From NCBI GenBank assembly GCA_965207065.1, contig OZ242260.1, positions 3,072,001 through 3,136,000 on the forward strand: a stretch of DNA of 64,000 nt, in the 5' to 3' direction. Position 1 is the stretch's first letter. Every line of letters starts with the position of its first letter. This DNA comes from a bacterium (GTDB lineage Bacteria; UBA8248). The notes under the pieces are model-generated. The model was not told the origin of the DNA and searched no databases. It was given only the letters and a program-made list of their open reading frames with translations. Positions 47,415 through 60,002 of this stretch are shown here, one piece after another. Made by a program: the position numbers and the translations under genes.

Positions 47415-48169
47415 TATCCACCCCCTGCCGCATGAGAAATATGCCGAATCCCTGAAATACCCGAAAACCAACAGATTATTCCCCTGTATTTGTGGCGAAA
47501 TCCCTTTCACCATCCTGAATGGACGCGAATTTATCCCGTAATTCCCCTTGAGACGCCGTCCGTATTTCCCCGCGGATGCCCGCATTTGCCGTTGCGCCGC
47601 TCCTCCCTGAGACGTGTATCCTCACGATTGTTTCCGGCGGCGGGGGAGTTGCGCCACCGCGCAGAGCAAAAAATTTATTGAAATACCTCGTGAATTTATC
47701 GGATTTTATTTGAATTTATCGAATTTTTCGGAAATTCCCCCGCTCGAATAGGGCGCGAATCGCTCCGGTTCAGGCATGAACACCCGGCTTCCTTGGAAAG
47801 CGCCGCCTTTTCCGATTCAGCCCACTCGTCCGGCCCGAGCCCGGATTCTCCGTAAATCGGACCGAAACCGTATATAGCGTTGGTATAAAAACAAGGAATT
47901 TATAACCAACAACATATGGCCTGCATCGCAGGTCGGCCCCTAGGATGAAGATAGCAAAATCCAAATAGGGGATTGACCACGATGATTCGCGTTCAAATCG
48001 CATCCACGCTGTGCCTGCCGGGTAGAGCCGTGCCCGTTCCGCTCTCTTTGGGCGACGGCGCCCAGGCAGACGACCGCGATGAATGTCGGCGCGGTTTTCG
48101 GAGCGGCTTCATCAGAATCCCGGTTGATTCATCCGGTCCTGGTTGATCACGATGCGCGGAGCAAAACCA

Positions 48170-51016
48170 ATGGCAAGAACAATTCTCTCTGAAATTTCAC
48201 TTTTGGCCATATTATTTTACTTCGTCTTGGCTTTCGGCGTAATGGACAAAGACGTCGCGTTCGCTGGTAAATGGGGAGACGAGTTTTCCAGCACCATCCA
48301 TTCCACCGACCATCCGGATCCGATAACAGGTATCTTCGGAGCCAAAAGAGAGACCAGTACAAAGGATAGTCTCCAAAGTATCATCGTTGCTTTTGGAGTT
48401 CAGGCCATGTCGGATGACGACGACGATGGTGACGATGACGACGGTGACAACGACAGCGATGACGATGACGACGATGAAAACAGGTCTATAGTCACAACTA
48501 CCAACAAGGAAAGCACCACGCCCATCAGTCAGCAAAGCACCACGTCCACCAGCACGCAAGATAGTGACGATGATGACGACGACAATGATGACAACGACAG
48601 CGATGATGACGACGATGATGGAAGCAGTTCGTCTACTTCGCCCACCAGCACGCAAGATAGTGACGATGATGACGACGACAATGATGACAACGACAGCGAT
48701 GATGACGACGATGATGGAAGCAGTTCGTCTACTTCGCCCACCAGCACGCAAGATAGTGACGATGATGACGACGACAATGATGACAACGACAACGATGATG
48801 ACGACGATGATGGAAGCAGTTCGTCCACTTCGTCCACCAGCACGCAAGATAGTGACGATGACGATGATGACGGCGATGACGACGACAACGACAGCGACGA
48901 CGATAACGACAATGATGACGATGATGATGGCAGAATCGGCAATTTGGTATCATCGGTTCGCAAAGGGTCCTTGTTGAAGGAAGTCAAGGCAAACCCGGCG
49001 CTGGCGAAGGGCGTTGCGGGGAACATCAAGCGGGCGGGGGGCGCGCGGCCTCTGGGGTCAACGCCCACGACCACGTCGGAGGAGACGAGCAGCACGACAC
49101 AATCGTCTTACCTCTCCGGCGGTCGCGCCTCGAAGACGAGCAGCACGACGCAATCGTCCTATATTTTCATCACGTCTTACCTCTCCGCCGATCCTGCCTC
49201 GAAGATGAGCAGCACGACGCAATCATCCTCTCTCTCCGGCGGTCGCGTCTCGGACCCCTCGTACTTCCTCGCCGAGCGTGACGCGAACGGGGACGTGCAG
49301 TTCACCTTCAAACGCAAAACCGGCTCCACAGTCTCGACCCTGAGCACGACGGATCTGGACGTATCGTCGAGAAGGGTGGACGATCTGGCGTCGGGCTGGA
49401 GTGGTGTCGAGACCCACAAGGATGCGACGAACGGCATTTTCAACTGGGACGCCTACGTCGACAGCCAGGGCAATGCGGACGCGGACTATCTCTCGCTGGG
49501 TACGTGGCTGTACATCTACAAGGACCCCGAAGACGGCAGCTTCACCGGATCGTACGATCTGGGCGTCGCCGCAGGTGGCAACGATCCCTTCGAGAACGAG
49601 AATCTCGCCGGACTTACGGGCGCGGCGACCTACAGCGGGCCCGCGACCGGTCTGTACATGATGAAGACGGATGCAGACGCGGATCCCGCATTCGATTACT
49701 TCGACGCGCGAGCGGATCTGGCGGTCGATTTTGGGGATGCGACTGCACTGGGAACCCTCTCGGGGTCGATTACGGGGGGCAGTACGGATGGAGGTGTGTC
49801 CCTGCCCGCGTTGACCCTGGGTTCCGCCGACATTACCGGTGCGGTCCTCGGGGGGAACTTCGATGGCGATACCAGCGGGGAGACGGTTGACGGCGTCACT
49901 CTCTCGGGCAAGTGGGGGGGTAAGTTCTTCGGAAACCGTGCCAGTTCGACGGGTCATCCCGGCTCAGTGGCGGGCACCTTCGGAGCTAACGCGGCGGACG
50001 GCCTCCAGAGCATCATCGGTGCCTTCGGGGCAAAACGTACACCTTCCCCGGTTCGCTACGGATCCTTGCTGAAGGAAGTCAATGAGAATCCGACCCTGGC
50101 TAGGGGTGCCGCAGTGCGCATCCTGAGGGCCGGGGGCGCGCGGCCTCTGGGGTATACGCCCGCCTCGGAGGAGATGAGCAGCACGACGCAATCATCCTCT
50201 CTCTCCGGCGGTCGCGCCTCGGACCCGTCGTACTTCCTCGCCGAGCGTGACGCGGACGGAGACCTGCAGTTCACCTTCAAGCGCAAAACCGGATCCACCG
50301 TCTCGACCTTGAGTACGACGGATCAGGACGTATCGTCGAGAGGGGTGGACGATCTGGCGTCGGGCTGGAGTGGTGTCGAGACCCACAGGGATGCGCCGGG
50401 CGGCATTTTCAACTGGGACGCCTACTCCGACAGCCAGGGAAATTCGGATGCGGACTATCTCTCGCTGGGTTCGTGGCTGTACATCTACAAGGACCCCGAA
50501 GACGAGAGTTTCACCGGCTCCTACGCCCTGGGCGTTGCGGCCGGCGGGAACGATCCTTTCGATAACGACAACCTCGCCGGGCTGACGGGCACGGCAAGCT
50601 ACAGGGGGCCTGCGACCGGCCTGCACATGATGAGGGCGGATACGAACGCGGACCCCGTATTCGACTATTTCGACGCGCGAGCGAATCTGAGTGTCGATTT
50701 TGGGGACGCGACCGCGCTGGGAACCGTCTCGGGGACGATAACCGGGGGCAGGACGGATAGAGGCGTGTCCCTGCCTGCGTTGACCCTGGATTCTGCGGAC
50801 ATCACCGGCAGCGCCCTCGGGGGGAACTTCGATGGCGACACCAGCGGCGTGACGGGCGATGGCAACGCGCTCTCGGGTAAATGGGGGGGTAAGTTCTTCG
50901 GAAACCGCGCCAATTCGGACGATCATCCCGGTTCGGTGGCGGGCGCCTTCGGGGCCAACACGGCGGACAACCTCCAGAGCATCATCGGCGCCTTCGGCGC
51001 CAAACGAACGCCGTAA
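48170..51016 (+). CDS. Secreted protein with poly-Asp/Ser-Thr repeat tract and two transferrin-binding-protein-like (TbpB/HphA-type) beta-barrel domains
   Basis: Signal peptide ending AFA; poly-D 48407-48928; duplicated domain with YLSLGxW, GxAxYxGPATG and GKWGGKFFG..PGSVAGxFGA...IGAFGA; fold inferred from motif pattern. Confidence 0.75.
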   Translation: MARTILSEISLLAILFYFVLAFGVMDKDVAFAGKWGDEFSSTIHSTDHPDPITGIFGAKRETSTKDSLQSIIVAFGVQAMSDDDDDGDDDDGDNDSDDDDDDENRSIVTTTNKESTTPISQQSTTSTSTQDSDDDDDDNDDNDSDDDDDDGSSSSTSPTSTQDSDDDDDDNDDNDSDDDDDDGSSSSTSPTSTQDSDDDDDDNDDNDNDDDDDDGSSSSTSSTSTQDSDDDDDDGDDDDNDSDDDNDNDDDDDGRIGNLVSSVRKGSLLKEVKANPALAKGVAGNIKRAGGARPLGSTPTTTSEETSSTTQSSYLSGGRASKTSSTTQSSYIFITSYLSADPASKMSSTTQSSSLSGGRVSDPSYFLAERDANGDVQFTFKRKTGSTVSTLSTTDLDVSSRRVDDLASGWSGVETHKDATNGIFNWDAYVDSQGNADADYLSLGTWLYIYKDPEDGSFTGSYDLGVAAGGNDPFENENLAGLTGAATYSGPATGLYMMKTDADADPAFDYFDARADLAVDFGDATALGTLSGSITGGSTDGGVSLPALTLGSADITGAVLGGNFDGDTSGETVDGVTLSGKWGGKFFGNRASSTGHPGSVAGTFGANAADGLQSIIGAFGAKRTPSPVRYGSLLKEVNENPTLARGAAVRILRAGGARPLGYTPASEEMSSTTQSSSLSGGRASDPSYFLAERDADGDLQFTFKRKTGSTVSTLSTTDQDVSSRGVDDLASGWSGVETHRDAPGGIFNWDAYSDSQGNSDADYLSLGSWLYIYKDPEDESFTGSYALGVAAGGNDPFDNDNLAGLTGTASYRGPATGLHMMRADTNADPVFDYFDARANLSVDFGDATALGTVSGTITGGRTDRGVSLPALTLDSADITGSALGGNFDGDTSGVTGDGNALSGKWGGKFFGNRANSDDHPGSVAGAFGANTADNLQSIIGAFGAKRTP
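48546..48860 (+). repeat. 96-bp coding tandem repeat (3 copies + partial)
   Basis: CCACCAGCACGCAAGATAGTGACGATGA starts at 48546, 48642, 48738 and 48834. Confidence 0.95.
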
Positions 51017-51078
51017 ATTCGGATGCTCCTTCAGGAGGCCGAGCAGAAAATCCCTGGAGCTTTGTTGAGGAACGCTGA

Positions 51079-52446
51079 ATGAGCGCCAGGAAAGTTGTCG
51101 GGCATTTGCGTGAAAGGCTTTCCGAACCGATTGACATCGCTTCGCTGGTAATGGTCCGGATTTTTTTCGGGCTGATCATGCTGTGGGAAGTCGCGCGGTA
51201 TTTCAAGAAGGGCTGGATTCATAAATACTGGATCGCGCCGGATTTCCATTTTCACTACTTCGGGTTTGACTGGGTCGCGCCCTGGCCCGGCGACGGAATG
51301 TATTGGCATTTCCTGGGACTGGGTTTTCTGGCCCTGCTCATCACCATCGGCTTGTTTTATCGCGTGGCCGCCGCACTTTTCTTCGTCGGTTTCAGCTATA
51401 TCTTCCTGCTCGAGCAGGCGCGCTACCTGAACCACTTCTATCTCGTGTGCCTGGTGAGCTTCCTGATGGCGATCATTCCGGCGGACCGGGCCGTGTCGCT
51501 GGACGCGAAGCTCGGCTTCTGCGAGGGAGCGGATACCGTCCCCGCTTGGAGCCTGTGGATTCTGCGCTTCCAGGTGGGCGTCGTCTATTTCTACGGCGGC
51601 ATCGCCAAGCTGAATGCAGACTGGCTGGCCGGGGAGCCGCTTAGAAGCTGGCTGCACAAACGCATGGATTTTCCGTTGATCGGCCCCCTTTTCGGGCAGG
51701 AGCCGGTCGTCATGCTCATGAACTACGGCGCTCTGTTCTTCGACCTGCTCATTGTGCCGCTCCTGATGTGGAGAAGAACCAGGGGCGTGGCGTTCGCTGG
51801 CGTGCTGTTTTTCAACCTCACCAACGCCGTCATCTTTCACATCGGCATTTTCCCCTGGTTCGCCATTGCCCTCTCCACGGTGTTCTTCGCTCCCGACTGG
51901 CCTAGGCGATATCTGATCCTAGAAGAAAATGAGGCGGCGACACCACCCGGCCCAAGCCTTTGTTCCCGCGTCTTGCTCGCATTCCTCGCGGTTTATGTGT
52001 GCTGGCAACTGTTGTTGCCTCTGAGGCACTGGCTCTATCCCGGGAATGTGAACTGGACCGAAGAGGGGCATCTCTACGCCTGGCACATGAAGCTTCGCAG
52101 CAAATCCGGGCGGGCGAGATTCATCGTCACCGACAATGCGGGAAACGAGTATAAAATATCCCCCACCCGCTACATCAAAAAGTGGCAGGCGAGGAAAATG
52201 GCCGCCAGGCCGGACATGATTCATCAATTCGCCTACTATCTGGGCGATCGGTTGCGGGCGGAAGGAATGAGGGTGTCCTCGATCCGAGTCGACGCCAGGG
52301 TATCCCTGAACGGCCGGAGGCGGCAGCGCTTGATCGCCCCGGACGTCAACCTCTTGAATGAGCCGCGCTCGATTTGGCCGAAACATTGGATCAATCCCCT
52401 GGAGGTGCCTCTTCATGAGCGTCGCCGGAAGGGGAGGAAAAAATGA
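51079..52446 (+). CDS. HTTM-domain / vitamin K-dependent gamma-carboxylase homologue
   Basis: FHFHYFGFDWV.P, YLNHFYL, VYFYGGIAKLNADWLAGEP, IGIFPW, NWTEEGHLYAWHMKLRSK, PDMIHQFA and SLNGR..QRLI.PDV motifs align with GGCX. Confidence 0.92.
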   Translation: MSARKVVGHLRERLSEPIDIASLVMVRIFFGLIMLWEVARYFKKGWIHKYWIAPDFHFHYFGFDWVAPWPGDGMYWHFLGLGFLALLITIGLFYRVAAALFFVGFSYIFLLEQARYLNHFYLVCLVSFLMAIIPADRAVSLDAKLGFCEGADTVPAWSLWILRFQVGVVYFYGGIAKLNADWLAGEPLRSWLHKRMDFPLIGPLFGQEPVVMLMNYGALFFDLLIVPLLMWRRTRGVAFAGVLFFNLTNAVIFHIGIFPWFAIALSTVFFAPDWPRRYLILEENEAATPPGPSLCSRVLLAFLAVYVCWQLLLPLRHWLYPGNVNWTEEGHLYAWHMKLRSKSGRARFIVTDNAGNEYKISPTRYIKKWQARKMAARPDMIHQFAYYLGDRLRAEGMRVSSIRVDARVSLNGRRRQRLIAPDVNLLNEPRSIWPKHWINPLEVPLHERRRKGRKK

Positions 52447-52648
52447 ATTCAGCCATGAATAGTTATAACCTTCAACAGGAGTCGGGATTGCTTCGCTCTC
52501 GTCGAAACGGTTCGGCCAGTTTGATCATTCCCATTACGGGTGGCGCTGGCTCAGTTCTCTTGATGAAATTCATGTTTCGTGGAAGTGAACGCTGGATTCG
52601 AAACGCTTTGGCAAGGAGAATTTGGATCTGGAACCGAAGGAGGCGGGC

Positions 52649-53083
52649 ATGACTTCACATAAGGCCGAACGCATTGAACCCGCCGATATATCCTCGCAGG
52701 ACGCTTTTCTTCTCTATGACGGCGAGTGCCCGTTTTGCAGCTTTTACGCGCGAAAATCGCGGTTCGAGACGCAAACGGGGCGGTCCTTGAAACTTATCGA
52801 CGCAAGCCGGGCGCCCGTGCTCGTCGATAAGCTGCGGCGCGAGGGATGCGACATCGAGGCGGGGATGATTCTCATCCTGGATGACCGGCGCTACCAGGGC
52901 GCGGCGGCGATGACCGCGCTCGAGGCGATGACGAGTGGAGACGACTGGTTTAACCGGCTCATGAGGTGGTTTTCTTCGAATCCACGACGCGCACGCATCC
53001 TCTACCCATGGCTCCGAATGCTGCGCCGTGCGGCCCTTTGGGTGAGGGGCAAAGGCAGGTTCACCATTTCCGGTCGGGACTGA
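52649..53083 (+). CDS. DCC1-like thiol-disulfide oxidoreductase (DUF393)
   Basis: LLYDGECPFC motif; AAGGAGG RBS. Confidence 0.88.
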   Translation: MTSHKAERIEPADISSQDAFLLYDGECPFCSFYARKSRFETQTGRSLKLIDASRAPVLVDKLRREGCDIEAGMILILDDRRYQGAAAMTALEAMTSGDDWFNRLMRWFSSNPRRARILYPWLRMLRRAALWVRGKGRFTISGRD

Positions 53084-53126
53084 TTCGCCTCAGTCGGGCT
53101 TCCCGAGGGGAAACCCCATAAAAGCA

Positions 53127-53268
53127 ACCCCCCCTACCCCCCCTTGTCAGGGGTCAAACGCGAGTGAGGAACGAGCGTTTGCATAAGCCATTGGCGGGAA
53201 ACGCATCGGTTTGCAATTCCTCCCTCCTCGGTCGGCATTGACCCCTGACAAGAGGGGGTAGGGGGGGT
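53127..53268. repeat. 31-bp inverted repeat (30/31), REP/MITE-like
   Basis: ACCCCCCCTACCCCCCCTTGTCAGGGGTCAA ... TTGACCCCTGACAAGAGGGGGTAGGGGGGGT. Confidence 0.85.
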
Positions 53269-53487
53269 GCTTCTGACGAGGACTCTTTCATCGGGCATTC
53301 CCCTCGGGATGCCCGACCCCACTAGCGGAAGTGAATTGCTCTCTCGCCGGATGGTAAAAACTCTCAAGAGGGGAGTCGTTTCATAAGAATATGTTGATTG
53401 GAGAAGTCCATTGCCAGACAGGAAGGCATTCCAACAACTCCCCAGGGGGCGTTGTTCTCTGGTTTCGGCATGCCCACCGACTCGGAA

Positions 53488-54021
53488 TTACTCTCGTCCG
53501 GCGGGGTGAACCACGTCGGACGAAGAGTCTTCCAGGACGGGAGCCAGCAGGTGATGGATGATCTCGGCGACGAATTCGCCGCGCCCGTGCACGCCGGCCT
53601 TTGCGTAGAGAGCAGTGGCTTGCAGCCGCGTGGTGTTTTCCTTCACTTGGCGCAGTTCGGCGATTTCGGCGAAGCGGTAACCTTTGATAATCATCCACGC
53701 AATTTCTCTTTCACTGGGAGTCAGTTTCCACCCATCCATCTGTACTTCGATGCCGGCGGCAAGCTCGCCTGCGAGCGCCTTGTTTCGGGTCCTCTCCCGT
53801 TGAAGGCGCGTTCGCAAGTCGGCGAGATCACGCAAACTGATAATAAGGACCACCAATACGAAGAGGAATACAATTGCTTCGATAATAAAATGCGTGGAGG
53901 CGAACTCCCCCTCCAAAGCTGCGTCGGTGATGAGGTCGTAAACCAGAAATAACGCAGCCGGAAGTAGGATGCCGATTCTGAGAATTACTTGTGAATTGTA
54001 ATTTTTTAGTATGCTTCTCAC
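53488..54021 (-). CDS. Membrane-anchored (2 TM) LuxR/CsgD-type HTH regulator
   Basis: Two hydrophobic helices, a coiled coil, then WKLTPSEREIAWMIIKGYRFAEIAELRQVKENTTR..ALYAKAGV. Confidence 0.85.
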   Translation of the reverse strand: MRSILKNYNSQVILRIGILLPAALFLVYDLITDAALEGEFASTHFIIEAIVFLFVLVVLIISLRDLADLRTRLQRERTRNKALAGELAAGIEVQMDGWKLTPSEREIAWMIIKGYRFAEIAELRQVKENTTRLQATALYAKAGVHGRGEFVAEIIHHLLAPVLEDSSSDVVHPAGRE

Positions 54022-54271
54022 ATCAGATTGTCCTGTTTGCGGACTTGACTTGCCCCGATTTTCGTTGTGTCGACAGATAAGAACTATATCAAAAGGATAA
54101 CTTTATTTCACAGCCGTTGAAAATGGATTGATTTATCGGAATTCACCCGCCCCCGGTGCGCGTCCGCGCCGACTCTCTTCTCTCGAATCGGGGTCGACGC
54201 TTTCATGTGGCGTTCTCCCGCCTCGTGGAGTAGAATTACTTCTTTATGCCGCACTGTCTGAGGAGTGAGAG

Positions 54272-55591
54272 ATGTCGAAAAAATATCGATTGTCCGGGTG
54301 GATGATATGGGCCGGCGCTCTGGCGCTGCTCGTCGCGGGGGTGGCGGTGGGCCCCGTCACGAATCCGGCGGCGAGCGAGACGAGCGCGTATTCGGAGCTG
54401 AGGGCCTTCAGCGAGGTCCTGAGCCTCGTCGAGGAGAACTACGTCAACAAGGTGGACGCCAAAAAACTGATTCGCGGCGCCATCCGCGGCATGCTTCGCA
54501 CGCTGGACCCCCATACGACTTATCTGAATCCCGAATTCTTCAAAGAGATGCAGGTGGAAACCACCGGCCGCTTCGGCGGTCTGGGGGTGGAGATTTCGAT
54601 CCGCGACGGCGTGCTGACGGTGGTGACGCCAATCGAGGATACCCCGGCGCACAAGGTCGGCGTGCAGGCGGGCGATCAAATCGTCTTCATCGAGAAAGAC
54701 CCGACGAAGGACATGCCGCTTCAGGAGGTCGTCAAGAAGCTTCGGGGCAAGCCCGGCACGAAGGTGAAGATCACCGTGAGGCGCAAAGATGTGAAAGAAC
54801 TGCTCGACTTCACCATCACGCGCCAGATCATCCGCATCAAGAGCGTGCGAAGCCGGATGCTGGCGGACGATATCGCCTATATACGGGTCCGCAGCTTCCA
54901 GAACGGCACGGGTCGGGAAGTCAAGGATGCGCTTTCCTCGCTCATGGGTGAGGGCGCCAGGGCCCTCGTGCTCGATTTGCGGAACAATCCCGGCGGTCTC
55001 CTCTCCCAGGCGGTTTCGGTGTCCGACGTTTTCCTGGAGGCGGGCAGCCTGATCGTCTACACCAAGGGCCGCATGACCGATCAGGAGCATCGCTTCACCT
55101 CCACGCACGAGGTGCCGGGCGGGAAGATTCCCATGGCGGTGCTCGTGAACGCGGGCAGCGCGAGTGCTTCGGAGATTGTGGCGGGCGCGCTCCAGGATCT
55201 GGGAAGGGCCAAGCTCATCGGCGTCAAGACGTTCGGTAAGGGCTCGGTGCAGACCGTCGTTCCGCTCTCGGACGGCTCGGGGCTCAGGCTGACCACAGCG
55301 CTTTATTTCACGCCCAAGGGAAGGCGCATCCAGGGCGAGGGAATCGAACCCGACATCGTCAGCGAGGTGGAGAGAAGCACCGGCGTCGCGCGCATGATGC
55401 GCGAGAAGGACCTGCCGGGGCATCTGCCGAGTGATGCGGAGAAAAAAGGGGAGGGCAAAGAAGACGCTCCGGGCGGTGAGCAAGCCGGCCAGTCTCAAAC
55501 CCCCGCCGAAGAAGAGAGAAAAGACACGCAACTCGAGCGCGCCGTCAAATACCTCAAGGATTCATTCTTGAGCAAGAAGATGGGCGCCTGA
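54272..55591 (+). CDS. ctpA: C-terminal processing protease (S41)
   Basis: LDPHT, GRFGGLG (PDZ), LDLRNNPGG, SASASEI and TFGKGSVQ motifs. Confidence 0.95.
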   Translation: MSKKYRLSGWMIWAGALALLVAGVAVGPVTNPAASETSAYSELRAFSEVLSLVEENYVNKVDAKKLIRGAIRGMLRTLDPHTTYLNPEFFKEMQVETTGRFGGLGVEISIRDGVLTVVTPIEDTPAHKVGVQAGDQIVFIEKDPTKDMPLQEVVKKLRGKPGTKVKITVRRKDVKELLDFTITRQIIRIKSVRSRMLADDIAYIRVRSFQNGTGREVKDALSSLMGEGARALVLDLRNNPGGLLSQAVSVSDVFLEAGSLIVYTKGRMTDQEHRFTSTHEVPGGKIPMAVLVNAGSASASEIVAGALQDLGRAKLIGVKTFGKGSVQTVVPLSDGSGLRLTTALYFTPKGRRIQGEGIEPDIVSEVERSTGVARMMREKDLPGHLPSDAEKKGEGKEDAPGGEQAGQSQTPAEEERKDTQLERAVKYLKDSFLSKKMGA

Positions 55592-55699
55592 TCGGCCACA
55601 TGCGGGCACGGCATCGCCATCTTGGATTCACACTGTAGCCGGCCAGGTTCCTGCGCCTGTCTTCACGAAAAGAGTTTTCTGTCGGGCTCCCCCAAACGA

Positions 55700-55910
55700 G
55701 CGGGCACAGGGGCCCGCTCCTACGGGTTCGTTGAGTAACGCGAGAGGTTCGTAGGGGCGGACCGGTGTGTCCGTCCTTGGGTGTTCGATCTCATCAGATG
55801 CCTCATCAAATCGTAGGGACAGGCCCCCGTGCCTGTCCGCTAAGGGCCTGCGATACCACCGTGTTTTCGTTTCTTTCGTAGGGGTTGCATATGGGGTTGT
55901 TGGAAAACCC
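55700..55910. repeat. GTAG-type REP cluster downstream of ctpA
   Basis: GTAGGGACAGGCCCCCGTGCCTGTCCG at 55813-55839 is identical to 22802-22828; further GTAGGGG hairpins. Confidence 0.75.
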
Positions 55911-56235
55911 TGTTTCGAAACCGAGCGCCTTTGACGCTCCCTCATCGGTCACATCAAACTCACGACTTGCTTGGCCGCCGTATTGTCCTCACCCTGAGTA
56001 GCCGCCGAAGGTAAAACGCGACTGAGAAAGGAGCAATGACATTGTAATTAATCCGTCTATTTGTCAGTCGCACGCATGAACGCCTCATAATACGATAACT
56101 ATTTGATTATATTCAGTTATTTATCATACTGTCGCTTCAGTTCCCCCTTGTGTTTTCGCCATACGTATGCTTTAATACATCCCGTATTGATGCCATACGT
56201 ATGCGTTTTGATTACATGTTTCACCGGGAGGGACC

Positions 56236-57432
56236 ATGCCCAGAAGAAGCGAACTCAAAATTACCAAGCGCACGGTCGACGCGCTGAACGTCGAGGCGGG
56301 GGACGCCCTCTTCTGGGACCGGGAGCTGGCCGGCTTCGGGGTGCGGGTCCACGCCACGGGCAGGAAAGTCTACGTGGTGCAGTCCCGTGGACCTGGAGGG
56401 CCGAAGAGGGTCACCCTGGGCCGGCACGGCGAGATGCCGGCGGATGAGGCGAGGAGGCGCGCAGCCCTCGTCATCGACCGGATCAAGCGGGGCGAGGACC
56501 TTGAGCCAAGGCCACCCGTGGCGGAACTCACGGTAGCCGGCCTGGCCGAGCGCTTCATGCGGGTCCACGTCGGCGTGCACTGCAAGCCGGGCACCGCGGC
56601 GGGGTACCGCTCCGTGCTCGATGGACACATTCTGCCGGCGCTGGGAGAAATGCCGGCGGCTGCGGTCGGGCGGGGGGAAGTCTCGGCGCTGCACCACCGG
56701 CTCCGGAGCACGCCCATCCGGGCGAACGCGGCGGTGGACCTTCTGTCCGAGATGTTCTCGCTGGCCGGGGCGTGGGAACTGACTCCGCCCGGACGCAACC
56801 CGTGCCGGGGGTTGAGACGCTACAGGACGCGTCCGCGCGAGCGGTTCTTGAGCGATGAGGAGTTCCGTCGTCTGGGCCGTGCGCTCAAGGACGCGGAGGG
56901 GACGACCTGGCCGCCCGCGCTCGCGGCGATCAGGTTGTTGATCCTGACCGGGTGCCGGAGGGGCGAGATACTCGGGCTGCGCTGGGAGGACGTGGACCGC
57001 ACGGCCGGCGAGTTGAGGTTGCGCGACGCAAAGACGGGCCCGCGCATGGTTCCCCTGACGACGCCCGTGCTGGAGGTGCTGGACGGCATCCCCCGCTCGC
57101 CTGAGAACCCGTGGGTGATCGCGGGACAGAAGGCAGGGAGTCGCCTGTCGAACCTCTACCACTACTGGGAGCCTATCCGGGAGCGGGCCGGGCTCGGTGA
57201 CGTGCGGATTCATGACCTGCGCCACTCGTATGCCAGCCGCGCCCTGGCGCTGGGCGAGGGTCTGCCCGCGATCGGCAGGCTGCTCGGACACTCGAAGGTG
57301 TCGACCACGGCGCGTTACGCGCACCTGATGAGGGACGCCGAGAAGACGGCGGCCGCCCGCGTGGGCGAGAGCATCGGGGCCCACATCGTCTCGCGCAAAG
57401 GCGTAAAAGAAGGAATGAACGGAGATGGCTAG
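56236..57432 (+). CDS. Tyrosine integrase with N-terminal arm-binding domain
   Basis: WDRELAGFGVRV, TGCRRGEI, K (DAKTG), HDLRHS and LGH..TTARY catalytic set. Confidence 0.93.
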   Translation: MPRRSELKITKRTVDALNVEAGDALFWDRELAGFGVRVHATGRKVYVVQSRGPGGPKRVTLGRHGEMPADEARRRAALVIDRIKRGEDLEPRPPVAELTVAGLAERFMRVHVGVHCKPGTAAGYRSVLDGHILPALGEMPAAAVGRGEVSALHHRLRSTPIRANAAVDLLSEMFSLAGAWELTPPGRNPCRGLRRYRTRPRERFLSDEEFRRLGRALKDAEGTTWPPALAAIRLLILTGCRRGEILGLRWEDVDRTAGELRLRDAKTGPRMVPLTTPVLEVLDGIPRSPENPWVIAGQKAGSRLSNLYHYWEPIRERAGLGDVRIHDLRHSYASRALALGEGLPAIGRLLGHSKVSTTARYAHLMRDAEKTAAARVGESIGAHIVSRKGVKEGMNGDG

Positions 57433-58594
57433 ACCGAAGTATCGAACGCTCTCGAGCCGGGCGGTCGGGAAGCTTGAGGTGGAAAAGGACACGGTGTTCT
57501 GGGATGGGGAACTCACCGGCTTCGGCGTCAGGGTCTATCCCACCGGAGCCAGGGTGTATATCGCCCAGGCCCGGGGACCGGAGGGTCCCAAACGTGTAGC
57601 GGTTGGCCGGCACGGGGTGATCAATGCGGAGCAGGCCAGGCGGCGCGCGGCTTTGATCATCGCCCGGGTCAAGGCCGGCGAGGAGCCGGCGCCCGAGCAG
57701 ATGAGAGCGAAGGACGGGCCGAGTGTGGCCGAGCTCGCGAAACGCTACTCCGAAGAACACCTCGCGGTGCGGTGCAAGCCGGGGACGGAGGCGCTGGTCC
57801 GCTCGGTGGTCGACAAGCACATCGTGCCGGCTTTCGGGAAGCTGCCGCTCGCGGAGGTCGAGCGTGCGCAGGTGGTGGAACTGCACCAGCGGCTGTACGA
57901 GACGCCCTCGACGGCGAACCTGGCGGTCCGCACCCTGTCCTCGATGTACCGCCTGGCGGGGGCGTGGGGACTCGTTCCCGAGGGATTGAACCCCTGCCGC
58001 TCCATCGCCAGGTATCCCGGGCGCAGGCGCGAGCGCTTCCTGACGGATGAAGAGTTCGTCCGCCTGGGAGAGACCCTCGATGAATTCGAGACGGCGGGCG
58101 GCGCGTCGGCGCCCGCGGTGGCGGCCATCCGTCTCCTGATGCTGACCGGGTGCCGGAAGAGCGAGATACTGAAATTAAGTTGGGAGGACGTGGCCCTGGG
58201 TGAGAGCGAACTGAGGCTGCCCGACACGAAGACGGGGGCAAGGGTGGTTCCGCTCTCCCCGCCTGCGGCCGCGCTCCTCGCCGGCCTGCCGCGCCTGCCC
58301 GGCAATCCCTGGGTCATACCCGGCAGGAAGCCGGGCGCGCATCTGAAGAACCTCGACGAGGCCTGGCGGGCCGTCCGGGCGCGCGCGGGTCTCCACGACG
58401 TCCGCATTCATGACTTGCGTCATTCCTACGCCAGCCGGGCGCTGGCCCTGGGCGAGGGACTGCCCATGATTGCGAAACTGTTGGGCCACGCCCACGTCGA
58501 GACCACGGCTCGCTACGCGCATCTGGCGCGCGATTCGGTGCGCGAGACAGCGGAGCGCATAGCCGTGAGCATCGCGGCCGATATAAGGGCCTGA
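57425..58594 (+). CDS. Second tandem tyrosine integrase (paralogue)
   Basis: Same motifs: TGCRKSEI, DTKTG, HDLRHS and LGH..TTARY; overlaps the first gene by 8 bp. Confidence 0.93.
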   Translation: MARPKYRTLSSRAVGKLEVEKDTVFWDGELTGFGVRVYPTGARVYIAQARGPEGPKRVAVGRHGVINAEQARRRAALIIARVKAGEEPAPEQMRAKDGPSVAELAKRYSEEHLAVRCKPGTEALVRSVVDKHIVPAFGKLPLAEVERAQVVELHQRLYETPSTANLAVRTLSSMYRLAGAWGLVPEGLNPCRSIARYPGRRRERFLTDEEFVRLGETLDEFETAGGASAPAVAAIRLLMLTGCRKSEILKLSWEDVALGESELRLPDTKTGARVVPLSPPAAALLAGLPRLPGNPWVIPGRKPGAHLKNLDEAWRAVRARAGLHDVRIHDLRHSYASRALALGEGLPMIAKLLGHAHVETTARYAHLARDSVRETAERIAVSIAADIRA

Positions 58595-58649
58595 GGCTTG
58601 TGGACGGCGCACTCCGTCGTGGCCACAAGCTTGCGAACACCGCCTCCGC

Positions 58650-58841
58650 CTGCGGCTTCATGACCTGCGCCACTCCTTCGCGTCCAGGGCGCTGGCGCTG
58701 GGAGAGAGTCTACCCATGATCGGGAAGCTGCTCGGGCACAACCAAGTCGAGACCACGGCGCGCTACGCCCACCTGTCGCGCGAATCGGTCCGCGAGACGG
58801 CGGAACGGATCGCCGCAAGTATCGCCGAGGACATCCTGTAG
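58650..58841 (+). pseudogene. C-terminal relic of a third integrase
   Basis: LRLHDLRHSFASRALALGESLPMIGKLLGHNQVETTARYAHLSRESVRETAERIAASIAEDIL*; N-terminal part missing. Confidence 0.88.
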
Positions 58842-59126
58842 GGGTATTGGGAGGCGTCGCTGCAAGCTCGCGCCGGAAGCACCAGTCGGTCGGCACAAAA
58901 TTCCCCTCCCCGGTCGTGTTTGACCCTGCACCTCCACCTAATCAGGATGATGTGGATATCACATTTTTTCGCGAGGAGATCGTTTATATAACTAGTTGAC
59001 AGACAGTAGGTTATATCTAATTAACGACGATACGAAAAAGCGCTTTCCTTTACTTGTCAACACGAGCATTGATCCGTAACGACTCGCATCTAAGACTTCG
59101 CGGGATAGCGCCAGTCGGGTCATGCG

Positions 59127-60002
59127 TCAGCGCCGAAACCTTACAGCCCATGACGCTTCAATATCTTCCTCGTCGTCTTCAATCTCATCCGGCGGCTCCA
59201 TGCCAGTGAGGACGGTGAGTGTCTTGCCGTAACGGCCCAAGCCAACTACTTCTTCGACAACCTCCTGTCGGTACGGCCCACTGAACCAGTCCTGAAGGTC
59301 GGACGTGCCACTGGCACGTACCGCACACTCGACATTGCTTCTGTCGGCGTTGAAGGTGGCCGTAATGCTGCCAGTGGGCAGCGGTGTGCCTTTGCTTATC
59401 CAGTCTAGGTCGGGAAAGTCCATCAGGGGCTCAGACATGAAGGCGTAGTCGACGATTCGGCCTTCGCTTCTGATTACCGCCACCGGGTCACGGTTGATTT
59501 GAGCGCAGCGGATCGCTGTTGCCTCCAGAGATGTCCCGCAAACATCGGCCAGCGTCTCGATTGCTTCCAGGCCATCGCCCGCACGCCTCGCTGCAGCCGT
59601 GAATAACTTCGTCGGCATTAGCAGCGCCGCCGCGAATTGGTCGGCTTCTTGCTCATAGCGTTCGGAACTCTGGAAGCCGGCATGGGATACATGCTGGCCG
59701 CGTTTATCAAAGACCGAATCCAGATGCCCGGGTAGCCAATAGTGGCCGATCTCATGTCCGATCGAAAAGTTTATAAAGCCTTCGCTGTCCACGTGTGTCG
59801 GGTAGCAGATGCCGAATTGGCCACTAACGTGCACCAGCATGCCGGATGCCCCACCGGAATTGGCCGGTAACGGCCGTAACTCAATGTCGAGTCGACGGGC
59901 GATTTCGAACGGGTTGATAGGGAGCGCGTCAATTTCCAACTCCTTAAGGAGCCGCGCTGCCTCCCAGTGAACCTTGATAAACGGGTCTGACCGGCGTGAC
60001 AT
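59127..60002 (-). CDS. ImmA/IrrE-family metallopeptidase (CapP-like)
   Basis: NFSIGHEIGH (HExxH) and EQEADQFAAALLMP; divergent from CBASS. Confidence 0.88.
   Translation of the reverse strand: MSRRSDPFIKVHWEAARLLKELEIDALPINPFEIARRLDIELRPLPANSGGASGMLVHVSGQFGICYPTHVDSEGFINFSIGHEIGHYWLPGHLDSVFDKRGQHVSHAGFQSSERYEQEADQFAAALLMPTKLFTAAARRAGDGLEAIETLADVCGTSLEATAIRCAQINRDPVAVIRSEGRIVDYAFMSEPLMDFPDLDWISKGTPLPTGSITATFNADRSNVECAVRASGTSDLQDWFSGPYRQEVVEEVVGLGRYGKTLTVLTGMEPPDEIEDDEEDIEASWAVRFRR

Follow-up and report, generated by a model that had tools for sequence, protein, structure and literature searches.

A mobile bacterial gene block pairs a VKGC-type membrane enzyme with an exported poly-aspartate protein, a candidate carboxylation system

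The window, the 64,000-nt stretch of bacterial DNA analysed here, contains an accessory block in which the gene of a VKGC-type HTTM membrane enzyme follows that of an exported poly-Asp protein, and Asp-rich tracts are likewise concentrated beside HTTM genes in many phyla. Vitamin K-dependent carboxylation of Asp in the exported partner proteins is the best reading of these sequences, though a tentative one.

The accessory block and its genes

The features of the block are listed by window position.

47415..54271, whole accessory block, about 6.8 kb, between the transketolase gene (end 47414) and the S41 peptidase gene (start 54272)
47872..47920, + strand, conserved imperfect palindrome, GTTGGTAT ... 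ATAACCAAC, 5' of the poly-Asp gene
48170..51016, + strand, exported poly-Asp protein, 948 aa (ATG 48170 to stop 51016; from ORF and sequence)
48413..48925, + strand, Asp tract (aa 82-252, 171 aa), defined by composition; candidate modification site
51079..52446, + strand, VKGC-type HTTM membrane enzyme, 455 aa (Pfam, phmmer and AlphaFold2 model)
52649..53083, + strand, DCC1-like thiol-disulfide oxidoreductase with a CPFC motif, 144 aa from the likely start (Pfam PF04134)
53093..53317, nested inverted repeat with 25-nt and 57-nt arms, just 3' of the DCC1 gene (repeat search)
53488..54021, - strand, divergent membrane-anchored LuxR/GerE-type regulator, 177 aa (weak profile matches)

The three co-oriented genes (signal-peptide poly-Asp, HTTM/VKGC and DCC1-like) lie where the initial annotation had placed them, with coordinates and Pfam in agreement, and the HTTM gene starts 62 bp past the stop of the poly-Asp gene. 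The poly-Asp gene is read from ATG 48170, as opposed to the TTG at 48143 that opens the mechanical ORF, and its product has a hydrophobic, signal-like N-terminus (aa 1-32) ending in AFA. This is followed by a short remnant of the last strands of a barrel, the Asp tract, an S/T-rich linker and two repeats of ~285-315 aa that align almost end to end and are each closed by a TbpB-type beta-barrel. The Pfam TbpB_B_D domain is matched on repeat 2 taken by itself (E 1.1e-7; 32.9 bits vs a cut-off of 26). Unlike TbpB-type surface lipoproteins, the protein has no cysteine and hence no lipobox Cys, and is therefore not a lipoprotein. The tract, annotated as ~170 aa and Asp-dominated, indeed spans 171 aa with 50% Asp, 19% Ser, 11% Thr and 2 Glu. 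It includes twelve D4-D6 runs, most with G or N next in sequence, and is encoded by a 96-bp tandem unit (x3.6, 96% identity). No Gla or related Pfam domain and no propeptide was matched in the protein.

The DCC1-like ORF opens at TTG 52622 and its stop ends at 53083, with the likely start at ATG 52649, downstream of GAAGGAGG. The protein includes the motif YDGECPFC and matches PF04134 at 36.9 bits (cut-off 27.8), and D24, C27 and C30 are invariant among 11 HTTM-adjacent DCC1-like homologues. No signal peptide is found in this protein, which is probably cytoplasmic or on the membrane surface. Its structure was modelled with low confidence (pLDDT 66.8), and the model gives weak matches to glutaredoxin, NrdH and thioredoxin (best E 0.01). 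The suggested linkage of DCC1-like genes to HTTM is real, always directly adjacent and extended by an N-terminal DCC1-like fusion (P0080), but it is a minority arrangement, noted in 7 of 157 HTTM loci outside the genus. A genus-DCC1 seed (phmmer/HMM) recovered genus copies only; the other DCC1-like genes were found with a mixed seed. A 69-aa ORF (52443-52652) lying between HTTM and DCC1 is conserved in the 95%-identical locus L092 alone and is absent from the other genus loci; thus, it is not counted as a gene.

The block is mobile as a whole: 4 of the 23 genus genomes carry it, inserted at three different places in the chromosome, and among the genus genomes examined only that of the window (G000) and G015 have it between the transketolase (tkt) and S41 genes. 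Of the 19 others examined that lack the block at this site, 15 have the S41 gene directly after tkt; these include G010 and G012, in which the block is located elsewhere. Stray D6 matches occur in 4 of the 19 genus genomes without HTTM. The regulator lies beside the block in all 4 genus genomes that have it; both of its profile matches are under the cut-off (GerE, E 6.5e-4; NCBIfam LIC13292 family, E 5.6e-14), and a literature search on LIC13292 and its neighbours found nothing useful. The inverted repeat is one copy of a palindromic repeat that is dispersed in the genome (171 genome matches by blastn, many at 86-97% identity over ~150 nt), and it may act as a terminator or delimit the block on this side. 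The palindrome is found 5' of the poly-Asp gene both in the window and in loci L009, L007 and L008, with differing flanking DNA, and may be an operator or 5' element. A promoter and terminator scan between the genes gave nothing above shuffled expectation. DNA near-identical to the window is found in sequencing runs labelled, among others, as sponge metagenome.

Enzyme fold and residues compared with human GGCX

The enzyme combines in one chain an HTTM core (aa 16-274; PF05090, E 4.5e-89) and a lumenal-type domain (aa 297-442; VKGC_lumenal_dom, PF22777, E 6.4e-45), both far over the cut-off, and matches human GGCX chains by phmmer (E 9e-43). Its AlphaFold2 model (pLDDT 79.3) has 16 GGCX chains as its only structure matches at E <=0.001, with TM-scores of 0.77-0.80 for the ten best of the 16 and 0.62-0.80 over the full range. 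Bacterial VKGC homologues number at least 5499 at E 1e-10 or better. Eight proteins are longer fused HTTM forms, none of which has an Asp tract or a Pfam domain that explains the extension.

The accessible parts of PMC12589487 and PMC12647623 assign to GGCX residues roles in deprotonating vitamin K, binding the quinone and trapping CO2. GGCX K218, H160, N159, D263 and N290 align with K177, H119, N118, D222 and N249 of the enzyme, and F286, F294 and F299 (the CO2 stack), W223 and M401 align with F245, F253, F258, W182 and M337. Each of these catalytic, quinone and CO2 residues is kept in 81-82 of 82 orthologues. The GGCX motif matches of the initial annotation are borne out, with H119 paired to H160 and K177 to K218 in the alignment to human chains. 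By contrast, the GGCX residues of Glu binding and substrate coupling (Y395, N158, K217, L394, H404 and R436) are replaced by H331, L117, A176, G330, R340 and K373. Of these, His331 is shared by all 82 orthologues and, together with the other replacements in the Glu pocket, argues for a different substrate pocket.

The alignment stops at residue 450 of the enzyme, equivalent to human residue 514 (455 vs 758 aa in total); thus, ~240 C-terminal GGCX residues are missing, and the propeptide-binding region past residue ~514 is absent by this alignment. The label 'full-length' is, therefore, apt for the bacterial family but not in comparison to GGCX. With Y395, N158 and K217 replaced and the C-terminal residues missing, substrate handling must differ and carboxylation cannot be assumed. 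The enzyme retains GGCX region 374-418, which is missing in giant-virus 'epoxidase-only' homologues according to the accessible text of PMC13486548. On this basis the enzyme is a proposed vitamin K-dependent carboxylase. When the enzyme was modelled in complex with 60 aa from the Asp tract, the prediction scored 0.01; it was run without controls and counts neither way.

The replaced residues (Y395 to His, N158 to Leu, H404 to Arg) would also suit a different chemistry, in which the pair is functionally linked but vitamin K oxygenation drives some other change on the partner, such as epimerisation, hydroxylation, cross-linking or the carboxylation of residues other than Asp, and the Asp runs are a docking element for the basic outer domain and a counterpart of the propeptide. 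The missing propeptide-binding part, which calls for another mode of recognition, is in keeping with such docking. This alternative is nonetheless unlikely, as the invariance of the CO2-trapping F258 and of the full deprotonation set is hard to explain without carboxylation.

Supply of the quinone was to be judged from the menaquinone pathway, and futalosine-pathway genes are indeed present in the genome (MqnA/D, 2 matches; MqnC, 484.6 bits vs a cut-off of 428.1). Classical MenA has no match in the genome, nor does VKOR (PF07884) in the complete 4.48-Mb sequence.

Linkage of HTTM genes to poly-Asp tracts across phyla

The survey set includes 162 HTTM-orthologue loci of many phyla, 82 from a genome collection and 80 from metagenomes. 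Within 3.5 kb of HTTM, 29 Asp tracts were found in 822 kb, compared to 2 in 777 kb farther out, equivalent to ~35 vs ~2.6 tracts per Mb at the same loci, a 14-fold difference. The genome collection has 20 near tracts (in 15 of 82 loci, 490 kb) vs 1 in 647 kb beyond, and the metagenome collection 9 (in 8 of 80 loci, 332 kb) vs 1 in 130 kb beyond. The ORF-based count is 14 near vs 1 far (Poisson p 4e-18). The near tracts come from at least nine named phyla; 26 of the 29 share the strand of HTTM, and the partner genes are mostly separated from HTTM by 63-364 bp. The initial annotation had asked if secreted D/E-rich neighbours are enriched; this is so for Asp-rich neighbours, but Glu-rich neighbours in the same survey were 0 near HTTM, with 2 weak cases >2 kb away.

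Individual genomes give a similar picture. In G000, only 1 of 28,745 ORFs (>=50 aa) reaches 10 Asp per 20-aa window (16 Asp, vs 9 in the runners-up), and this single strong poly-Asp ORF adjoins the single HTTM gene of the genome. All 4 D6 codon runs of the 3.4-Mb genome G041 are ~3 kb upstream of HTTM. Both of these complete genomes have their sole strong poly-Asp tract within ~3 kb of their sole HTTM gene. Chance adjacency, or hitch-hiking on a mobile island with Asp tracts merely frequent near secreted proteins, might be entertained as the block is mobile and tandem repeats generate Asp tracts easily; the 14-fold density, the Poisson value and the two whole genomes with the only strong tract beside or ~3 kb from the only HTTM gene leave this explanation close to refuted.

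The partner proteins are mutually unrelated and have in common export signals and D4-6[G/N] runs. Their domains include the TbpB barrel, PKD plus a T9SS tail, Kazal, SLH, PepSY-like, DUF5666, Tad, a pilin N-methylation motif and Ig/MBG, and one partner is an 81-aa LPDTG protein. On the HTTM tree (162 rows) the poly-Asp-linked state requires at least 9-13 changes; thus, the linkage is not the quirk of one clade. The mean net charge of the outer domain is +6.0 in linked (n=23) and +0.4 in unlinked loci (n=139; p 1e-4), and +4.75 in linked loci with close kin collapsed (n=16; p 0.003), both values being uncorrected for phylogeny. The basic outer domain suits docking as well as catalysis, and the linkage itself fits the different chemistry outlined above equally to carboxylation of Asp. 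Yet the partners at L052, L087 and L076/L157 are a signal peptide followed by almost only an Asp run, and so offer few other residues to modify.

A poly-Asp tract is within 3.5 kb in 23 of the 162 HTTM loci. The other 139 are in favour of a further explanation, in which HTTM acts on the quinone pool, a lipid or a small molecule, a role suggested for the giant-virus and Leptospira homologues, and the poly-Asp protein is a co-regulated Ca2+/metal-buffering surface protein of the same envelope process, with no enzyme-substrate relation. Poly-Asp proteins plainly exist without the HTTM enzyme, as is common in cyanobacteria: of 201 sampled genomes, 114 have D6 codon runs and 5 have a VKGC lumenal domain. 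The numbers of runs in these 5 are 27, 2, 1, 1 and 0, and thus there is no genome-wide co-occurrence; in three of the 5 the D6 run and HTTM are on separate contigs. MloH (see below) has a small-molecule substrate, and lipids are the proposed targets of the giant-virus homologues (PMC13486548), as far as the accessible texts go. This explanation is, however, doubtful given the tight adjacency and shared strand, the rebuilding of the adjacency with unrelated partners in many phyla, the lack of NRPS/PKS and desaturase genes in the block, and the carboxylation region that the window's enzyme keeps and the virus enzymes do not. Neighbour clustering at the HTTM loci revealed no further widely shared neighbour; two-component regulators, a generic family, are found in 20 loci. 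Literature searches found no report of an HTTM/poly-Asp linkage, and the literature reached names no ribosomal protein substrate for bacterial VKGC homologues.

Proposed mechanism and related systems

In the preferred reading, carboxylation of Asp, the block would encode an enzyme together with its own substrate. As in GGCX, the HTTM/VKGC enzyme is predicted to be a protein of the cytoplasmic membrane whose active-site cavity and basic C-terminal domain face outward. With reduced menaquinone, O2 and CO2/bicarbonate as reactants, it would generate a strong base that strips a side-chain proton, after which CO2 is added. Its targets would be the exported partner's Asp runs (D4-6 with G or N next), modified as the partner emerges from the Sec channel, and the product would be beta-carboxy-Asp, whose side chain is of the malonate type, as in Gla. 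The carboxylated tract may then form a dense stretch on the surface protein that binds divalent cations or mineral. The DCC1-like CxxC protein may be a redox helper on the cytoplasmic side (e.g., in re-reducing quinone), and the membrane LuxR-type regulator may control the block.

More speculatively, VKGC-type enzymes of many phyla could turn exported oligo-Asp runs into beta-carboxy-aspartate runs that form dense Ca2+, metal or mineral surfaces. If so, S-layer-anchored, T9SS-secreted, pilin-like and barrel proteins would be carriers of malonate-type surfaces, a ribosomal-protein modification established in no organism so far. Bacterial vitamin K-dependent carboxylases would gain in them their first natural protein substrates, and vitamin K biochemistry would extend to bacterial cell surfaces, with a bearing on calcium and mineral handling. 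A Leptospira VKC orthologue, to our knowledge the one bacterial orthologue assayed, reportedly (Rishavy and co-workers, 2005) has vitamin K epoxidase activity but no Glu-carboxylase activity; Asp as the substrate, in place of Glu, would explain why Glu peptides were not carboxylated. The linkage to D4-6[G/N] proteins provides a concrete and cheap hypothesis on the substrates of bacterial VKGC homologues and, even if carboxylation fails, marks the poly-Asp proteins as functional partners of the enzyme family.

The system resembles GGCX in its fold over the whole bacterial protein, catalytic Lys, quinone pocket, CO2-stacking Phe, exported candidate substrate with clustered acidic residues and, by homology, non-cytoplasmic active site. 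It differs in having acidic runs of Asp instead of Glu, a partner without a Gla domain or propeptide, the replacements of Y395, N158, K217 and H404, the missing C-terminal residues, and a co-encoded DCC1-like CxxC protein in a genome with no VKOR match.

MloH of the Streptomyces malonomycin pathway (Law et al. 2018, as cited) is, in the accessible account, a bacterial VKGC relative that carboxylates an aspartyl unit, which shows that the family is able to carboxylate at Asp. While MloH belongs to an NRPS/PKS-type cluster, the HTTM gene of the window has transketolase, poly-Asp protein, DCC1, regulator and S41 peptidase genes as neighbours, and the protein proposed as its substrate is large, ribosomal and exported. 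A Firmicutes HTTM-DCC1-like fusion with a DUF5819 partner has been interpreted as a bacterial complex akin to vitamin K-dependent carboxylase (bioRxiv 10.64898/2026.08.19.745780) and, as far as the accessible text goes, supports the HTTM-DCC1 link. In that system DUF5819 replaces the lumenal domain and the accessible text names no substrate, whereas in the window the enzyme includes the lumenal domain, DCC1 has its own gene and the neighbouring gene provides a candidate protein substrate. Giant viruses are described, in the accessible text of PMC13486548, as having VKOR and truncated gamma-carboxylase-like epoxidase-desaturase modules, read as lipid-modifying. These share with the window an HTTM-type enzyme, the conserved K218 and a redox module, but from what is accessible the virus proteins are desaturase-fused and the enzyme of the window is protein-linked.

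A further likeness is to sdpABC of Bacillus subtilis, a single operon in which the HTTM-type SdpB, which is not known to have a lumenal domain, and the small SdpA are needed to mature the secreted SdpC. As in the proposed system, an HTTM-family protein and a partner act on a secreted protein of the same operon; we know of no carboxylation of SDP. The B. subtilis control genome has both HTTM and DCC1-like matches.

The gene pair in the window and across phyla

An HTTM gene paired with a poly-Asp gene recurs across phyla, and this is the main result of the analysis. In the window, the initial annotation had described a signal-peptide protein with an Asp-dominated tract of about 170 aa, an HTTM/VKGC homologue 62 bp after it and a DCC1-like oxidoreductase (DGECPFC) third in the row, all of which are borne out by the following features:

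47872-47920: imperfect palindrome GTTGGTAT ... ATAACCAAC, upstream of the poly-Asp gene
48170 (ATG) to 51016 (stop): poly-Asp protein gene, 948 aa, with a hydrophobic signal-like N-terminus that has AFA at its end
48413-48925: Asp tract, 171 aa (aa 82-252), 50% Asp and only 2 Glu
51079-52446: HTTM gene, first base 62 bp past the poly-Asp stop, with both Pfam domains (HTTM, E 4.5e-89; VKGC lumenal domain, E 6.4e-45)
52649 (most likely start ATG, preceded by GAAGGAGG, 202 bp past the HTTM gene): DCC1-like gene, motif YDGECPFC

Terminator-like sites above the shuffled expectation are absent between the three genes. Twelve stretches of D4-D6 occur in the Asp tract, in most cases with G or N next; its DNA contains a 96-bp unit repeated in tandem (3.6 copies, 96% identity). 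C-terminal to the tract are two repeats of ~285-315 aa, which align almost end to end and each terminate in a TbpB-type beta-barrel (Pfam TbpB_B_D on repeat 2 scanned alone, E 1.1e-7, 32.9 bits, cut-off 26). The protein is not a lipoprotein, as its sequence has zero Cys. The window's own genome (G000) encodes three or more paralogues of this TbpB-like protein (E 2.5e-74 to 2e-21); the three listed (L088-L090; contig C1, 1613362-1614768, 1502613-1503941 and 3989838-3991574) have no Asp tract, which is found only in the HTTM-adjacent copy. Between the signal peptide and the tract, 48263-48430 (aa 32-87) is similar to the part of the C-terminal repeat that holds its final strands (E 2.8e-5 for the phmmer domain), and the tract seems to have originated within a third, truncated repeat or behind it. 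In G000 as a whole, 1 of 28,745 ORFs reaches 16 Asp in 20 aa, with runners-up at 9.

The neighbourhood survey included HTTM orthologue loci (47-86% identity) from a one-genome-per-species collection (80 of >592 candidate stretches) and from metagenome contigs (80 of >550). The genome set as counted comprises the first 80 loci, the window and the locus of its congener G012 (82 loci, 7353 ORFs of at least 50 aa). Sixteen of these ORFs have at least 11 Asp in a 20-aa window: 14 share the strand of HTTM and lie no more than 1.2 kb from it, one is 8.5 kb off, and one, which runs antisense across part of HTTM, is probably spurious. The initial annotation had asked whether acidic neighbours are enriched; for Asp they are, as the 297.5 kb up to 2 kb from HTTM contain 14 ORFs and the 839 kb beyond contain 1 (Poisson p 4e-18), and for Glu they are not, the 82 loci having no Glu-rich ORF near HTTM and just two that reach 9 Glu in 20 aa, both more than 2 kb off. 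ORF-based linkage is noted in 13/82 loci; of the 59 where at least 2 kb is available on both sides, 11 show it. Among the metagenome loci, on shorter contigs, six Asp-rich ORFs are near (225.8 kb) versus two far (236.3 kb), in 6/80 loci. A six-frame scan, which is independent of ORF calls, finds 20 tracts within 3.5 kb in 15/82 genome loci versus one beyond, and nine near tracts in 8/80 metagenome loci versus one beyond; 26 of these 29 near tracts are on the HTTM strand. Of the 162 HTTM rows from both sets, 21 have a neighbour called as an ORF, and their placement on a FastTree phylogeny requires 13 changes, at least nine forced by well-supported branches; thus, the linkage is dispersed on the tree, though enriched in the window's clade. 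The whole-genome counts of G000 (above) and of G041 agree with this. G041 (3.4 Mb) is the nearest relative beyond the genus, and its four codon runs for six Asp (D6 runs) are all found ~3 kb upstream of the HTTM gene, where a DUF5666 lipoprotein gene, which reads with a frameshift, ends; this gene is separated from HTTM by a PepSY_TM-like gene and a two-component pair. Immediately upstream of HTTM and on the same strand, L010, L062, L070 and L083 carry genes for an OmpR-type response regulator and histidine kinase, an arrangement that hints at signal-controlled HTTM expression in those lineages.

The partner proteins are unrelated, their common element being D4-6 followed by G or N. Export features (signal peptide, lipobox or pilin-type N-terminus) are seen in almost all partners, as judged by eye rather than by a predictor.

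Partner proteins of HTTM and what accompanies their Asp runs, by locus
Window: TbpB barrel
L015: PKD and T9SS sorting tail
L039: Kazal repeats
L043, L131: SLH
L082, L047, L134: PepSY-like
L010, L078: DUF5666
L125: Tad/TadG-like
L093: pilin N-methylation motif
L162: Ig/MBG
L087 (4251-4496): 81-aa protein with signal peptide and LPDTG anchor
L076, L157: nearly pure Asp-rich lipoproteins
L052 (8542-9144): Tat-like signal, then ~22 residues

The mature products of the L052 and L087 partners would be very short, hardly more than Asp runs, and convenient as minimal assay substrates. The L010 DUF5666 gene requires a frame change ahead of its Asp tail.

The HTTM enzyme and its cofactor supply

The HTTM enzyme matches human GGCX chains over both domains (phmmer E 9e-43). 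Its AlphaFold2 model (mean pLDDT 79.3) matches 16 GGCX chains with TM-scores of 0.62-0.80 (ten best, 0.77-0.80), and the structure search returned no non-GGCX matches at E <=0.001. Residue numbers are taken from the alignment, in which one query range corresponds to 23-288 in a truncated construct and 54-319 in the full-length chain. PMC12589487 and PMC12647623 assign roles in deprotonating vitamin K, binding the quinone and trapping CO2 to GGCX K218, D263, H160, N159, F286, F294, F299, W223, M401 and N290, which align to K177, D222, H119, N118, F245, F253, F258, W182, M337 and N249 of the window enzyme; each of the ten positions is conserved in 81 or 82 of the 82 orthologues of the first locus set. 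Segment 374-418 (GGCX numbering) is retained in the window enzyme; giant-virus homologues are without it and are therefore termed epoxidases only (PMC13486548). By contrast, GGCX residues that hold the substrate differ (Y395 to His331, N158 to Leu, K217 to Ala, L394 to Gly and H404 to Arg), with His331 found in 82/82 orthologues, and the window chain ends level with human residue 514.

The family has a strikingly basic motif of its own, WTEEGHx[FY]AWHMKLRxK, and the outer (lumenal-type) domain of the window enzyme has 30 K+R versus 12 D+E. Mean net charge of this domain is +6.0 in loci with a near Asp tract (n=23) versus +0.4 in those without (n=139; Mann-Whitney p 1e-4, without phylogenetic correction). 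Minus five near-identical genus rows, the linked mean is +3.8 (n=18, p 0.010), and with the rows merged into 16 lineages it comes to +4.75 (p 0.003), both again uncorrected for phylogeny. The basic outer domain of linked loci is a hint in support of an enzyme-poly-Asp relation.

All 14 DCC1-like ORFs of both locus sets immediately adjoin HTTM on the same strand (two of them come from loci that are present twice), and seven DCC1-bearing loci belong to other genera or beyond (L039, L064, L082, L103, L108, L113 and L159). One protein (P0080) is a DCC1-HTTM fusion with DCC1 N-terminal; a C-terminal DCC1 fusion is described from a firmicute in a 2026 preprint (10.64898/2026.08.19.745780). Judged by GGCX topology, both fusion points would be on the cytoplasmic side, and the window DCC1-like protein has no signal peptide. 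G000 encodes two MqnA/D matches and MqnC (484.6 bits, cut-off 428.1), and menaquinone, whose pathway genes the initial annotation had proposed to check, is therefore plausible; no match to classical MenA or to VKOR was found in this genome, which has a second DCC1-like gene at another site. The lack of the usual epoxide reductase leaves room for DCC1 without proving such a role.

Poly-Asp proteins without HTTM and the proposed mechanism

At most HTTM loci (139/162) the nearest 3.5 kb are free of Asp tracts, and in many genomes the enzyme may act on something else. Five HTTM genomes are without a called adjacent poly-Asp ORF yet have D6 runs, ~3 kb away in G041 and elsewhere in the other four. 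Regions fetched from three of the five encode exported poly-Asp proteins, one an Anabaena SLH protein orthologous to the HTTM-adjacent L043 protein, and have no HTTM or DCC1 gene beside these genes. L043 is from Almyronema epifaneia S1, in which HTTM immediately precedes the SLH poly-Asp gene, whereas Anabaena sp. UHCC 0204 has HTTM and the SLH gene on separate contigs (L029, L200). D6 runs are present in 114 of 201 cyanobacterial genomes and the VKGC lumenal domain in only five, whose D6 run counts are 27, 2, 1, 1 and 0. Stray D6 matches also occur in 4/19 genus genomes without HTTM, one a contaminated 8-Mb assembly rich in simple repeats. D6 runs are thus not specific to HTTM carriers and are widespread without HTTM, so the enzyme is dispensable for poly-Asp proteins.

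The neighbourhood survey nonetheless supports a real functional link between the HTTM enzyme and its poly-Asp partners. The leading mechanism, to which we give somewhat less than an even chance, is that the enzyme would catalyze vitamin K-dependent carboxylation of Asp runs in the co-encoded exported proteins. The product, beta-carboxy-Asp, would be expected to lose CO2 in acid, like Gla. In older reports, Asp peptides are said to be carboxylated by liver carboxylase, and the Leptospira orthologue was reportedly the subject of one earlier study. The sdpABC system serves as a comparison for the HTTM block. A full-text literature search, with subscription journals largely outside it, found no papers linking HTTM/VKGC homologues to Asp-rich proteins; the comparison literature comprised PMC12589487, PMC12647623, PMC13486548, PMC12186529 and preprint 10.64898/2026.08.19.745780.

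An accessory block in the genus

HTTM is carried by 4 of the 23 genus genomes (G000, G010, G012 and G015), with one copy on the single 4.48-Mb contig of G000. The order poly-Asp, HTTM and DCC1-like gene, with a divergent gene for a membrane LuxR-type regulator, is kept in all four. In G010, a frameshift or an error in the assembly leaves the poly-Asp gene as two overlapping ORFs (296 and 200 aa; L006/L008, about 10488-11764 in L006). The ~6.8-kb block is between the transketolase and S41 peptidase genes in G000 and G015. The comparison covered 19 other genus genomes whose copy of the window's site is free of the block; in 15 of them the two genes are directly consecutive, and these 15 include G010 and G012, which carry the block at other sites. 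The block thus travels as one unit, with its four genes together at three or more sites.

The palindrome (47872-47920 in the window) is conserved in 4/4 genus loci despite differing flanks, ~250-300 bp ahead of the poly-Asp gene, and may be the site for the LuxR-type regulator of the block. Near it, a direct repeat (GAATTTATCG at 47692 and 47712) is partly conserved; the 10-mer occurs 68 times in the genome. Past the DCC1 gene, 53093-53317 is a nested palindromic element (arms of 25 nt and 57 nt) and a copy of a dispersed repeat (171 genome matches by blastn, many 86-97% identical over ~150 nt), which looks like a MITE or REP-type element. Just past the S41 peptidase gene are tandem tyrosine integrase genes (56236-57432 and 57425-58594; Phage_integrase and Arm-DNA-binding; G+C 64-69%), which may border another mobile element; tRNA genes are absent from 53000-60000. 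The sequencing runs listed for window 48170-53083 include no RNA runs; near-identical DNA is present in runs of 10 studies, with five runs labelled 'sponge metagenome'.
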